Assembly: GCF_003334385.1 (NCBI RefSeq)
Contig: NZ_QOWN01000034.1
Direction: 5' to 3' (one strand)
Source of the DNA: Escherichia coli
GTDB taxonomy: Bacteria > Pseudomonadota > Gammaproteobacteria > Enterobacterales > Enterobacteriaceae
Length of the DNA: 47,554 nucleotides
Shown: piece by piece, positions 169 to 15,130 of the stretch
Layout: each line of letters starts with the position of its first letter
How positions within the stretch are numbered: the first letter of the stretch is position 1
Position numbers and translations under genes: made by a program
The notes under the pieces: generated by a model
What the model was told of the DNA's origin: nothing
What the model saw: only the letters and a program-made list of their open reading frames with translations
Database searches by the model: none

Positions 169-1299
169 TTAGCGGGTCAGGTCGTCAAAAAACTTCTTCA
201 CACCATCAAAGAAGCTCTTTGAGCGCGGGCTGTTGTGCTCACCGGTTGGGCCACCGAAGCTTTCTTGCAGCTCTTGCAGCAGCTGTTTCTGCTTCTCGTT
301 CAGGCCTACCGGTGTTTCGACGACAACGCGGCACAGTAAATCACCCTGTGCGCCACCGCGGACAGACTTGACGCCTTTACCGCGCATACGGAACAGCTTA
401 CCAGTCTGGGTTTCGCCAGGCACTTTCAGTTTGACGCGACCATCAAGGGTCGGTACTTCGATTTCGCCACCCAGCGCCGCCATAGCGAAGTTGATCGGGA
501 CTTCGCAATACAGGTTGTTGCCTTCACGCTCGAAAATCGGGTGCTGTTTAACCTGAACCTGAACGTACAGATCGCCTGCCGGTGCGCCATGCTCGCCCGC
601 TTCACCTTCGCCCGCAAGACGGATGCGGTCTCCAGTGTCCACCCCTGCCGGGATTTTAACGGACAGCGTTTTGCTGCGCTCAACACGACCATGACCATGA
701 CATTTGTTGCACGGATCTTTGATCAGCGTACCGCGGCCCTGACAGTGTGGACAGGTCTGCTGCACGGCAAAGAAACCCTGACGCATCTGCACCTGACCAG
801 AACCATGACAGGTCGGACAGGTCTGCGGCTGTGTACCTGGTTTTGCACCGCTACCGTGGCAAACGTCACACTCTTCCAGAGTCGGAATGCGGATCTCTTT
901 GGTCACGCCACGTACAGCTTCTTCGAGGGTGAGCTCCATGTTATAGCGTAAATCAGCACCGCGCGCCGCACGTTGACGACCACGTCCGCCGCCAAAAATA
1001 TCGCCGAAAACGTCACCAAAAATATCGCTGAAGTCTGCGCCGCCGCCAAAACCGCCGCCGCCCATACCGCCTTGCTCAAACGCAGCATGACCATACTGAT
1101 CATATGCCGCACGTTTTTGCGAGTCGGTCAGAACTTCATAAGCTTCCTTGATCTCTTTAAATTTCGCCTCGGCCTCTTTGTCACCCTGGTTACGGTCCGG
1201 GTGGTATTTCATGGCCAGGCGTTTGTAGGCCTTTTTGATTTCACGCTCTTCCGCTGTTTTGGAAACGCCTAAAATCTCGTAATAATCTTGCTTAGCCAT
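169..1299 (-). CDS. dnaJ: Chaperone DnaJ (Hsp40), 376 aa
   Basis: ORF translation [12 protein letters not shown]..., J-domain HPD motif, Gly/Phe-rich linker, four CxxCxGxG zinc-finger repeats. Start set at the internal ATG giving MAKQDYY rather than the longest ORF. Confidence 0.97.
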
Positions 1300-1387
1300 C
1301 TTTTTTAAATTGCCCCTAGATGAATGCACGGGCGGAGAGGAAATTCCCCTTCGCCCGTGTCAGTATAATTACCCGTTTATAGGGCGA

Positions 1388-3304
1388 TTATTTTTTGTCT
1401 TTGACTTCTTCAAATTCAGCGTCGACAACATCGTCATCTTTCGCGTTGTTTGCAGAAGCATCAGCACCGGCAGTCTGCTGCTGGGCATGTTGCTGCTGGG
1501 CGATTTCCATCAGTTTCTGGGAAACCTGTGCCAGCTCCTGCATTTTCGCTTCGATAGCGGCTTTGTCTTCACCTTTCAGAGCAGTTTCCAGTGCAGTCAG
1601 TGCAGACTCGATAGCAGTTTTGTCGTCAGCCGGCAGTTTGTCGCCTGCTTCTTCAACCTGCTTACGGGTGCTGTGCAGCAGATGGTCGCCCTGGTTGCGA
1701 GTCTGTACCAGCTCTTCAAACTTACGGTCAGCTTCGGCGTTAGCTTCTGCGTCGCGTACCATTTTCTGGATTTCATCTTCGTTCAGACCAGAAGACGCCT
1801 TGATGGTGATCTTCTGCTCTTTACCGCTGTTTTTATCTTTCGCGGAAACGTGCAGGATACCGTCAGCATCGATATCGAAGGTAACTTCGATCTGCGGCAT
1901 GCCGCGCGGTGCCGGGTTGATACCATCCAGGTTGAACTGACCCAGAGATTTGTTATCAGCCGCACGTTTACGTTCACCCTGCAGCACATGGATGGTTACC
2001 GCAGACTGGTTGTCTTCAGCGGTAGAGAACACCTGGCTGTGCTTGGTCGGGATAGTGGTGTTTTTCGCGATCAGCGTCGTCATCACACCGCCCATGGTTT
2101 CGATACCCAGAGACAGCGGGGTAACGTCCAGCAGCAGTACGTCTTTCACGTCACCAGTCAGAACACCACCCTGAACAGCAGCACCGATTGCTACAGCTTC
2201 GTCCGGGTTAACGTCTTTACGCGGCTCTTTACCAAAGAACTCAGCAACTTTCTTCTGAACCATTGGCATACGAGTCTGACCACCAACGAGGATAACGTCG
2301 TCGATATCAGATACGGACAGGCCAGCGTCCTGCAGTGCAACTTTCAGCGGCTCAATGGAACGGTTTACCAGATCTTCAACCAGGCTTTCCAGTTTCGCAC
2401 GAGTCACTTTGATGTTCATGTGTTTCGGACCGGTCGCATCTGCAGTGATGTACGGCAGGTTAACGTCGGTCTGCTGAGCGGAAGACAGTTCGATTTTCGC
2501 TTTTTCTGCCGCTTCTTTCAGGCGCTGCATTGCCAGCGGATCGTTGCGCAGGTCAATGCCCTGATCTTTCTTGAATTCTTCAACCAGGTAGTTGATCAGA
2601 CGGCTGTCGAAGTCTTCACCACCCAGGTGGGTATCACCGTTGGTAGCCAGAACTTCGAAGGTTTTTTCGCCGTCAACTTCGTCGATTTCGATAATAGAAA
2701 TATCGAAAGTACCACCACCCAGGTCATAAACCGCGATAGTACGGTTGCCAGTACCTTTGTCCAGACCGTAAGCCAGCGCAGCTGCGGTCGGTTCGTTGAT
2801 GATACGTTTTACTTCCAGACCAGCGATACGGCCTGCGTCTTTGGTTGCCTGACGCTGAGCATCGTTAAAGTATGCCGGTACGGTGATAACAGCTTCAGTT
2901 ACCGGTTCACCCAAGTAATCTTCAGCGGTTTTCTTCATTTTTTTCAGCACTTCAGCAGAAATCTGCGGCGGTGCCATTTTCTGGCCTTTAACTTCGACCC
3001 ATGCGTCGCCGTTATCAGCAGCAATAATTTTGAACGGCATGATGGAAACATCACGCTGTACTTCTTCGTCCTGGAAGCGGCGGCCAATCAGGCGTTTAAT
3101 CGCAAACAGGGTGTTTTGCGGGTTTGTCACTGCCTGACGTTTAGCCGGCTGACCAACCAGAGTTTCACCATCCTGGGTATAGGCAATGATAGAAGGCGTG
3201 GTGCGATCGCCTTCGGCGTTCTCCAGCACGCGAGGAGTGGTGCCATCCATAATCGCTACACAAGAGTTGGTAGTACCCAGGTCGATACCAATTATTTTAC
3301 CCAT
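1388..3304 (-). CDS. dnaK: Chaperone DnaK (Hsp70), 638 aa
   Basis: [21 protein letters not shown]... full-length Hsp70 ending EEVKDKK; 88-bp spacer to dnaJ. Confidence 0.98.
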
Positions 3305-12667: not shown

Positions 12668-15130
12668 TTAGACTCCTAACTTCCATGAGAGGGTGCGTAG
12701 CAGATCGGCAAAGACACCGGCAGCTGTAACGTCATTACCCGCACCGTATCCGCGCAGGACCAGCGGCAGTGGCTGATAATAGTGGCTATAGAAGGCCAAT
12801 GCGTTTTCGCCGTTTTTCACTTTGAACAGCGGATCGTTGCCATCCACTTCAGCAATCTTCACGCGGCAGACGCCATCTTCATCAATATTGCCAACATAGC
12901 GCAAAACTTTTCCTTCATCACGGGCCTTCGCCACGCGCGCGGCAAAGAGATCGTCGAGCTGTGACAGATTCGCCATAAAAGTCGCAACATCGCCTTCCGC
13001 GTTAAACTCTGCGGGCAGCACAGATTCGATTTCGATATCCGCCAGTTCCAGTGATCGTCCTGTTTCACGGGCGAGAATCAACAGCTTGCGCGCCACATCC
13101 ATACCAGAAAGATCATCTCGCGGGTCCGGTTCGGTATAGCCCATTTCTCTTGCCAGCGTGGTGGCCTCGGAGAAGCTCATCCCTTCGTCTAACTTACCGA
13201 AGATGAAAGAAAGCGAACCAGAAAGAATGCCAGAGAATTTCATCAATTCATCACCCGCGTTGAGCAGGTTTTGCAAGTTCTCAATGACCGGCAACCCCGC
13301 ACCGACGTTGGTGTCATAAAGGAATTTACGCCGTGATTTTTCCGCCGCGTAACGCAGCTGATGGTAGTAATCCATCGACGAGGTGTTGGCCTTTTTGTTC
13401 GGGGTCACCACATGGAAACCTTCGCGCAGGAAGTCGGCATATTGATCCGCCACTGCCTGGCTGGAGGTGCAGTCAACAATGACCGGGTTTAGCAGATGAT
13501 ATTCTTTCACGAGGCGAATTAAGCGCCCGAGATTAAACGGCTCTTTGGCTTGCGCCAGTTCTTCCTGCCAGTTTTCCAGGTTTAGGCCATGCACATTGGT
13601 AAGCAGAGCCTTCGAGTTGGCAACGCCGCAGACACGTAAGTCGATATGTTTATTCTTCAGCCAGCTTTGTTGACGCTTCAGTTGCTCCAGCAGCGCACCG
13701 CCAACGCCACCGACGCCAATCACAAATACTTCGATAACCTGATCGGTATTGAACAGCATCTGATGAGTAACGCGCACGCCAGTGGTCGCATCATCGTTAT
13801 TTACCACGACAGAGATTGAGCGTTCAGAAGATCCCTGAGCAATGGCGACAATGTTGATATTGGCGCGGGCCAGCGCGGCAAAGAATTTCGCCGAGATCCC
13901 ACGCAAGGTGCGCATACCATCACCTACCACCGAGATAATGGCCAGCCGTTCCGTCACCGCCAGCGGCTCCAGTAAGCCTTCTTTCAGTTCCAGGTAGAAC
14001 TCTTCCTGCATTGCCCGTTCAGCTCGCACACAGTCGCTTTGCGGAACGCAGAAACTGATACTGTATTCGGAAGATGATTGCGTAATCAGCACCACGGAAA
14101 TACGGGCGCGTGACATCGCTGCAAACACGCGCGCCGCCATGCCGACCATTCCTTTCATCCCCGGGCCGGAAACGCTGAACATTGCCATGTTATTCAGATT
14201 GGAAATGCCCTTGACCGGTAATTCGTCTTCATCACGGCTGGCACCAATGAGCGTACCTGGTGCTTGAGGATTTCCGGTATTTTTAATCAGGCAAGGGATC
14301 TGGAACTGGGCGATGGGGGTAATGGTGCGGGGGTGAAGAACTTTAGCGCCGAAGTAGGAAAGCTCCATCGCTTCCTGGTAGGACATCGACTTCAACAACC
14401 TCGCATCGGGCACCTGACGCGGGTCGCAGGTATAGACCCCGTCAACGTCCGTCCAAATCTCGCAACAATCGGCGCGTAAACAGGCAGCCAGCACCGCCGC
14501 GGAGTAGTCGGAACCGTTGCGTCCAAGCACCACCAGTTCGCCTTTTTCATTACCGGCGGTGAAACCTGCCATCAGCACCATGTGATCAGCCGGAATACGA
14601 CTTGCCGCAATACGGCGGGTGGACTCAGCAATATCGACGGTAGATTCGAGGTAATGCCCCACTGCCAGCAGTTTTTCGACCGGATCGATAACGGTAACGT
14701 TGTGACCACGCGCTTCTAACACGCCGGCCATAATGGCGATCGACATTTTCTCGCCACGGCAAATCAGCGCAGCGTTGATGCTATCCGGGCACTGCCCCAA
14801 CAAACTAATGCCATGCAGGACATGTTTTATTTGGGCAAATTCCTGGTCGACGAAAGTTTTCAGTTGCGCCAGCGGGAATCCCGGCTGGGCGGCGGTGAGT
14901 CCTGTCAGAAGTTCGGCAAAAATACGTTCGGCATCGCTGATATTGGGTAAAGCATCCTGGCCGCTAATGGTTTTTTCAATCATCGCCACCAGGTGGTTGG
15001 TGATTTTGGCGGGGGCAGAGAGGACGGTGGCCACCTGCCCCTGCCTGGCATTGCTTTCCAGAATATCGGCAACCCGCAGAAAACGTTCTGCATTTGCCAC
15101 TGATGTACCGCCGAACTTCAACACTCGCAT
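12668..15130 (-). CDS. thrA: Bifunctional aspartokinase I / homoserine dehydrogenase I, 820 aa
   Basis: [50 protein letters not shown]... Confidence 0.98.

Follow-up and report, generated by a model that had tools for sequence, protein, structure and literature searches.

DnaK works with sub-stoichiometric DnaJ though both genes share one operon, and the DnaK:DnaJ ratio changes under stress, as was recently shown in Salmonella. What, then, does the structured element do that lies in the spacer between the two genes, and is it a small RNA gene, as its catalogue entry tpke11 implies, or a part of the operon mRNA? The function of its hairpin bears on the place of tpke11 in sRNA catalogues as well as on the balance of an essential chaperone system. 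The element was analyzed here in a 47,554-nucleotide stretch of Escherichia coli DNA (assembly GCF_003334385.1, contig NZ_QOWN01000034.1), hereafter called the window. The best explanation is that the element is part of the dnaKJ operon mRNA and not an independent gene. At somewhat better than even odds (a probability of about 0.55), it is a stem-loop that acts in cis between the two cistrons, where it fixes or shields the 3' end of an mRNA carrying dnaK alone and so lets the levels of dnaK and dnaJ diverge.

The dnaK coding sequence was located in the open reading frame list at positions 1388-3304 (minus strand; 638 aa, 1917 nt), with its TAA stop codon at 1388-1390, and matched, at 100% identity, the regions labelled dnaK in E. 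coli chromosomes. The dnaJ coding sequence, taken from the same list and matching the DnaJ N-terminus pattern, spanned 169-1299 (minus strand; 376 aa from the ATG at 1299-1297). The intercistronic spacer at 1300-1387 (minus strand) was exactly 88 nt long. By sequence comparison it was identical to positions 14080-14167 of K-12 MG1655, and the experiments performed in K-12 therefore apply directly to the sequence of the window; coordinates were converted as K-12 coordinate = 14080 + (1387 - window coordinate). Many E. coli chromosomes matched a 401-nt stretch across the spacer at 100% identity, and this stretch was present in 5425 of 5426 complete genomes. The spacer occurred once in each of these 5425 genomes and differed from that of the window at 1-4 positions in 1416 of them (about a quarter). 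Two such E. coli variants were examined. In E. coli 2017-02-2CC, GAAGGGG was changed to GAAGAGG at window position 1341 in the apical stem, by which a G.U wobble becomes an A-U pair, and the other differences in the two variants all lay in the A-rich leader directly 5' of the dnaJ start codon (1300-1311, minus strand), which is polymorphic within E. coli. In E. coli EC96 (NZ_CP060748.1), dnaK is annotated with 1902 nt instead of 1917, because 15 nt are deleted in frame from the part encoding the C-terminal tail; this difference was ruled out as a spacer change, since it sits in the dnaK coding sequence and the spacer is unchanged.

Other structured candidates were noted near the spacer. The dnaJ stop codon (169) is closely followed by a GC-rich hairpin, GCCTGCCCACGGGCAGGC, at 135-160, presumably the terminator of the operon; the tail of this hairpin on the dnaJ strand is only weakly U-rich. 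For Salmonella, Table S5 of Chao et al. 2017 (PMC5222698) gives the dnaJ 3' UTR as STnc890, a candidate sRNA associated with Hfq. Inside dnaK, a match to the archaeal C/D-box RNA sR17 at 1548-1604 (minus strand) reached 22.9 bits, below the gathering score of 36, and was set aside as a chance match.

A repeat search of the spacer found an inverted repeat with arms at 1327-1342 and 1344-1359, each of 16 nt and 88% complementary, whose outer 8 bp were CACGGGCG/CGCCCGTG. The earlier note, made from the sequence alone, had described a structured element with an imperfect inverted repeat in an 88-nt spacer, and this description held: the repeat is real and strongly conserved, and the reversed order in which its two arms had been given is immaterial. 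Repeat search and folding both placed the main hairpin, of 33 nt, at 1327-1359 (minus strand). It was built of an 8-bp basal stem CACGGGCG/CGCCCGUG (5' arm at 1352-1359 and 3' arm at 1327-1334, both minus strand), a 1x1 A.C mismatch, a 6-bp apical stem and an AUU loop. With 7 G-C pairs in the 8-bp basal stem, the main hairpin alone had a predicted free energy of -23.4 kcal/mol on the sense strand. Folding of the whole spacer on the minus strand, which had been proposed in the same note as a check, gave a stable structure of -32.7 kcal/mol (z = -4.3), and 0 of 200 shuffled sequences were as stable. The antisense strand of the spacer folded even better in E. coli (-36.5 kcal/mol, z = -5.65), and over the distinct hairpins the sense strand was better in 27, the antisense strand in 17, with 13 ties. 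The element was assigned to the sense strand because of the known transcription and the 3' end mapped on that strand, and not because of its folding energy. The motif ACGGGCG-N6-30-CGCCCGT occurred once in the 47.5-kb window, against 0.01 occurrences expected by chance.

The main hairpin is flanked by smaller features. The small hairpin P1 (GCCC-UAUAAAC-GGGU, 1371-1385, minus strand), which is part of the Rfam consensus structure, begins 2 nt after the dnaK stop codon and had a pairing probability of 0.93 in E. coli. Its inner pairs covaried across genera and its pairing register differed by group, hence 66% of its cells were paired. On the other side, the 3' edge of the main hairpin lies 27 nt upstream of the dnaJ AUG in the window, and the Shine-Dalgarno-like motif UAGGGGC (1312-1318, minus strand; UAAGGGC in most genera of the spacer alignment) follows, with its last G 13 nt from the AUG in E. 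coli. Reading the element as an RNA thermometer was rejected on the grounds that a hairpin of -23 kcal/mol is far too stable and that the Shine-Dalgarno-like motif lies outside of it.

The element is already known. The spacer matched the Rfam family RF02031 (tpke11) on the operon strand at 1300-1377 (minus strand), over the full model (1-77 of 77), with 69.6 bits against a gathering score of 43 and an E value of 2.2e-14. The same spacer carried a full-length match above the gathering score in seven other genera, namely Yersinia, Hafnia, Budvicia, Pantoea, Buttiauxella, Mangrovibacter and Shimwellia. The spacer element and RF02031, which is listed as G0-8893 (formerly b4414) in E. coli and as ncRNA0095 in Salmonella, are the same sequence at the same locus, and the suggestion of the earlier note that this is the putative sRNA tpke11 was confirmed by a score exceeding the family threshold. 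The entry G0-8893 'tpke11', an EcoCyc-style annotation, was used by Adams et al. 2021 (PMC7815308). No feature is annotated in the spacer in the RefSeq K-12 record or in the E. coli genome records among the matches listed. The hairpin has also been remarked on in papers on E. coli, Salmonella, Sodalis and Buchnera. Beyond this, our analysis shows how broadly the hairpin is conserved and in what pattern (the base is fixed, the apex is free), connects the mapped 3' end with the 2.1-kb mRNA, and makes a case that 'sRNA gene' is the wrong label for tpke11.

Conservation was analyzed in 120 loci, one genome per species, which were collected with a degenerate DnaJ N-terminus pattern and came mostly from the Enterobacterales in the broad sense. 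The hairpin was found in the dnaK-dnaJ spacer of 108 of the 120 sampled genomes, in 57 distinct versions, nearly all with predicted energies of -20 to -24 kcal/mol and weaker in reduced symbiont genomes. Throughout the 108 genomes the basal stem CACGGGCG/CGCCCGUG was kept with the same sequence. A model-based alignment of 65 distinct Enterobacterales hairpins showed 6 of 13 modelled pairs to be invariant and 93.7% of cells to be paired, and the sequence of the basal stem was likewise unvarying in an alignment of 92 spacers. Two-sided changes in the main stem of the 65 hairpins amounted to 2 pairs and 6 cells. This weak formal covariation arises because the stem hardly varies, and the structure was supported instead by the conserved pairing, by a shuffle test of the apical part and by compensatory substitutions seen in symbionts. 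The apical stem and loop, represented by 61 distinct segments, were freely variable yet self-complementary: 51 of the 61 were more stable than 95% of their composition-matched shuffles (mean z = -2.6). GNRA tetraloops (GAAA, GUAA, GCAA) were present in the Yersinia-Serratia-Hafnia-Budvicia group, and loops of the UUU(C) type in the Enterobacteriaceae. In the sampled hairpins a bulge or a 1x1 mismatch invariably followed basal pair 8 or 9. The basal stem was altered only in fast-evolving lineages, such as the Edessa symbiont, in which G-C was replaced by A-U and C-G by U.G in a compensatory manner. The core ACGGGC/GCCCGU was also found in the Orbaceae (Gilliamella, Orbus, Schmidhempelia), in which the flanking C-G pairs had become A-U, and in one Tolumonas genome; the Orbaceae and Tolumonas versions scored under the Rfam tpke11 threshold.

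Run over 100 sources (820 kb in total), a custom model of the element hit each locus at exactly one place; together with the single motif in the window, this means that the element is not a dispersed repeat, and a REP/BIME element, with one place per E. coli genome and one per locus in the 820 kb, was rejected. The alignment also revealed two conserved flanking motifs, UCGCCC right after the dnaK stop codon (1382-1387, minus strand) and GCAUGUUAAGGGCAG before the A-rich dnaJ leader. A boxA/nut-like reading of UCGCCCUUUGAAC was rejected, since other genera have UCGCCCUGAUGCAGGG at this place, which fits the hairpin instead. In about 95% of the genomes the hairpin stood 25-30 nt from the dnaJ ATG. 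In two Mangrovibacter loci and in Shimwellia, about 140 nt separated the hairpin plus CACGUAUGU from UAAGGGCAG-AUG, and the Shine-Dalgarno-like motif stayed beside the dnaJ ATG despite this insertion. On the other side, a repeat of about 127 nt containing ...GTGAATCCCCAGGAGCTTAC...GTAAGTGACTGGGGT... was located between the post-stop UCGCCC and the main hairpin in Buttiauxella agrestis and Rouxiella silvae, with the hairpin and the dnaJ leader intact; we take this repeat to resemble the ERIC/IRU elements. An extra hairpin, differing in sequence between lineages (alignment columns 32-92), was present between P1 and the main hairpin in Yersiniaceae, Erwiniaceae, Hafniaceae and Budviciaceae, for example in Yersinia, Pantoea, Hafnia and Budvicia genomes. 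The hairpin thus accommodates insertions on both flanks and behaves as a self-contained module. In Cricetibacter, dnaJ is not adjacent to dnaK.

Published measurements place an RNA end at this module. Adams et al. 2021 (PMC7815308, supplementary files 1 and 3) applied Term-seq to E. coli in LB at OD 0.4 and found a 3' end at K-12 position 14145 (+), which precedes dnaJ by 23 nt and was covered by 1862 reads on average. Mapped through the K-12 identity, this end is window position 1322 (minus strand), ...CGCCCGUG-CAUUC^AUC, 5 nt 3' of the last paired base of the hairpin. Coverage in the 800-nt intervals upstream and downstream of 14145 was 1085 and 351 without bicyclomycin and 1076 and 435 with it (PMC7815308), which corresponds to a 3.1-fold drop across the hairpin that was insensitive to this Rho inhibitor. 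The same study gave the end a Rho score of 1.25 ('No') and an intrinsic-terminator score of 4.33, with values of at least 3 being suggestive (PMC7815308). In Northern blots by Stead et al. 2011 (PMC3082872), the primary dnaK band was 2.1 kb, which covers dnaK only and a few nucleotides on either side. The 115-nt 5' UTR, the 1917 nt of dnaK and the 66 nt to the mapped end add up to 2098 nt, from which we infer that the 2.1-kb band matches a transcript ending at 14145. No sigma-70-like promoter and no terminator-like site was called by the scanner on the sense strand of the spacer, and the Sodalis spacer has likewise been reported to have no promoter or terminator of its own. A U-tract was absent 3' of the stem, the tail of which reads CAUUCAUC / CAUUCAUCUAGG in the window and CACGCAUGUU in most genera.

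These data can be brought together as follows. RNA polymerase from the dnaK heat-shock promoters would read through the spacer, and the very stable stem-loop at 1327-1359 would set a 3' end a few nucleotides downstream. It might do so as an inefficient terminator lacking a U-tract, efficient intrinsic termination being unlikely because this tract is missing. More likely, an endonuclease would cut just downstream, and the stem-loop would then block 3'-to-5' exonucleases or trimming; the mapped end UUC^AUC carries a U at +2, which is the preference of RNase E according to the consensus from Chao et al. (PMC5222698). By either route, the hairpin-capped dnaK-only mRNA of about 2.1 kb would accumulate with a dnaJ segment about one third as abundant, and this shortfall may contribute to the excess of DnaK over DnaJ. 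A short tpke11 RNA of about 65-75 nt, running from a cut in the AU-rich dnaK stop region to the hairpin end, would be a by-product. Differential levels of dnaK and dnaJ mRNA in Salmonella also speak for this reading: in low Mg2+ the dnaK coding region was about 2.5-fold more abundant than a spacer amplicon or dnaJ (Chan, Mukai and Groisman 2025, PMC12077118). The earlier note had given equal room to a structure for mRNA processing or attenuation, and this turned out to be the better-supported half of its hedge, given the 3' end just past the hairpin, the drop in coverage, the dnaK-only mRNA, the RNase E sites flanking the element in Salmonella, the spacer devoid of promoter-like or terminator-like sites and an original Northern signal much larger than 89 nt.

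Other observations count against a simple form of this explanation. The Term-seq read count of 1862 was modest, and the end was listed for one of three growth conditions (PMC7815308). Salmonella RPKM values for dnaK and dnaJ at 44 °C were similar (364/216 vs 330/304), and in high Mg2+ the dnaK and dnaJ mRNAs were alike (PMC12077118), so any effect must be conditional or species-dependent. In Salmonella, TIER-seq found RNase E-dependent 5' ends at 13499, 13500, 13506 and 13509, that is, in the last dnaK codons and the stop codon, and at 13544, exactly at the mismatch within the hairpin, with none in the stretch from the hairpin to dnaJ (Chao et al. 2017, PMC5222698). The spacer amplicon (-48 to +49) used for qPCR in low Mg2+ tracked dnaJ and not dnaK, which places the break upstream of the 3' side of the hairpin. 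Breaks upstream of and inside the hairpin are a misfit with a single-site model, and the effect in Salmonella is conditional. PhoP was found to destabilise the dnaJ part of the mRNA in this species, and Chan et al. did not find an intrinsic terminator and discussed tpke11 as speculation only (PMC12077118). Furthermore, dnaK mRNA was raised in both RNase E and RNase III mutants, and dnaJ mRNA was raised in the RNase III mutant only (PMC3082872), so that loss of RNase E raised dnaK and not dnaJ. Lastly, a role in stability alone leaves the invariance of the basal-stem sequence unaccounted for.

This invariance can be explained if the basal stem (G)CACGGGCG/CGCCCGUG(C) and the adjoining bulge or mismatch form a sequence-specific site at which a trans-acting protein, an RNase or a regulator, binds or cleaves and thereby sets the DnaK:DnaJ ratio under particular stresses. 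We regard such a recognition site as a possibility of rather low probability. The basal 8-9 bp are the same in the 65 distinct Enterobacterales hairpins with a free apex, the core persists in the Orbaceae and Tolumonas, the bulge or mismatch always comes after basal pair 8-9, and one RNase E-dependent end in Salmonella falls exactly there (PMC5222698). The uncoupling of dnaK and dnaJ is condition-dependent and needs PhoP (PMC12077118), and the rise of dnaJ mRNA in the RNase III mutant (PMC3082872) points in the same direction. However, no candidate protein is known, and neither the window nor the related loci (820 kb) contained a second copy of the motif. A short GC stem under strong selection for stability could likewise diverge slowly, and the fast-evolving symbionts do alter the stem, in a compensatory way. 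If such a site did exist, the element would be more than a passive stability hairpin, acting for example in the PhoP-dependent uncoupling during Mg2+ starvation. In another reading, tpke11 would be a genuine trans-acting sRNA that is freed from the spacer and pairs with mRNAs such as pgsA, prlC and yehU; in its favor, expression of tpke11 was reportedly PhoP-dependent inside fibroblasts (PMC12077118). Such an RNA was a candidate of Rivas et al. 2001, is carried in the EcoCyc and Salmonella annotations and in the Rfam class 'Gene; sRNA', and bound three mRNAs in in-vitro gel shifts; cuts by RNase E at the dnaK stop codon, combined with the 3' end that follows the hairpin, could free about 65-75 nt. 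The RNA used in the gel shifts was, however, about 370 nt long and extended into dnaJ 'to match the Northern', which implies that the original signal was not an 89-nt RNA, and an overexpression screen showed no biofilm or motility phenotype. An independent sRNA gene is expected to have its own promoter and terminator or defined processing ends; for E. coli a 3' end alone is on record, the spacer showed neither a promoter-like nor a terminator-like site on the sense strand, and RefSeq annotates no feature in it. Moreover, the conserved parts are the GC stem and the dnaJ-adjacent motifs and not an accessible seed region, and the level of any such RNA necessarily follows that of the dnaKJ mRNA. 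A trans-acting role is therefore considered very unlikely, and the mismatch between the 'sRNA gene' label and the element in promoter, terminator and Northern size points to a cis element.

Two further explanations place the function of the spacer at dnaJ. In one, UCGCCCUU after the dnaK stop codon pairs with the distal (U)AAGGGC by the dnaJ start, and ribosomes terminating on dnaK open this helix, P0, coupling dnaJ translation to that of dnaK. RNAalifold picked P0 as the closing helix of the 92 spacers, with 81% of cells paired across the alignment, and it was present in the minimum-energy fold of E. coli and predicted with a probability of 0.85-1.0 in Citrobacter, Yersinia and Hafnia; the unusual distance of the Shine-Dalgarno-like motif from the AUG, at least 13 nt, would also fit. 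Its two strands are simply conserved, though, with no real covariation, the local P1 wins in E. coli and Pantoea (probability at least 0.9), insertions of 100-140 nt between the partners are tolerated, and the main hairpin is left without a role, all of which makes such a ribosome-driven coupling device improbable in our judgment. In the other, RNase E cuts at the AU-rich end of dnaK, and the dnaJ message then starts with stable structures that, like a 5' cap, resist 5'-end-dependent decay. The strong RNase E-dependent 5' ends at Salmonella 13499-13509 (PMC5222698), the steady distance of the hairpin from the dnaJ ATG and the spacer amplicon that follows dnaJ in low Mg2+ (PMC12077118) are in line with this, but the E. 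coli 3' end falls after the hairpin and the 2.1-kb band has extra 3' nucleotides. The cut would also strip the dnaK mRNA of its stop codon and 3' protection, yet the dnaK segment is the commoner one and dnaJ is the less stable part (PMC12077118). This 5' protection of a processed dnaJ mRNA is given little credence as an account of the element.

The cis-acting stem-loop that sets or protects the 3' end of dnaK mRNA accordingly remains the preferred explanation. With its order-wide conservation and the RNA end mapped beside it, the hairpin is an obvious candidate for a control point of the DnaK:DnaJ ratio.

The element can be compared with known systems. With intrinsic or leaky intra-operon terminators it shares the GC-rich stem, the nearby 3' end insensitive to the Rho inhibitor and the terminator score of 4.33. 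Of the features of an intrinsic terminator, the stable GC-rich hairpin and, from the literature, the Rho-independent 3' end were present; the Enterobacterales stem differs in having no U-rich tract, and the scanner called nothing. The Orbaceae counterparts do share this tract, the core ACGGGC/GCCCGU being followed by U-rich tails (UUUAGUUGUUUAU; UUUAAUUGUUUUUU). These hairpins look terminator-like by eye and were not called by the simple scanner because of an internal loop. In a metagenome-assembled genome of the Alteromonadaceae, a canonical terminator, AAAGCGTCGATATTCGACGCTTTTTGT, follows dnaK at 360-382 (minus strand) in a 268-nt spacer with no ACGGGCG hairpin. The U-rich tails of the Orbaceae suggest that the Enterobacterales element may go back to a genuine dnaK terminator whose tail was lost.

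The hrcA-grpE-dnaK-dnaJ operon of Bacillus subtilis, which undergoes post-transcriptional processing, resembles the dnaKJ operon in that the chaperone segment of the mRNA differs in abundance from the co-chaperone segment; organism and sequence are unrelated, and the analogy is one of outcome only. Intercistronic stabiliser hairpins are known from the REP elements between malE and malF of E. coli and from the puf operon of Rhodobacter. The spacer element differs from these in being single-copy with its own sequence conserved across the order, and protection from exonucleases is putative here. What it shares with them is a stable stem-loop that lies between cistrons by a 3' end, with the upstream segment of the mRNA commoner than the downstream one.
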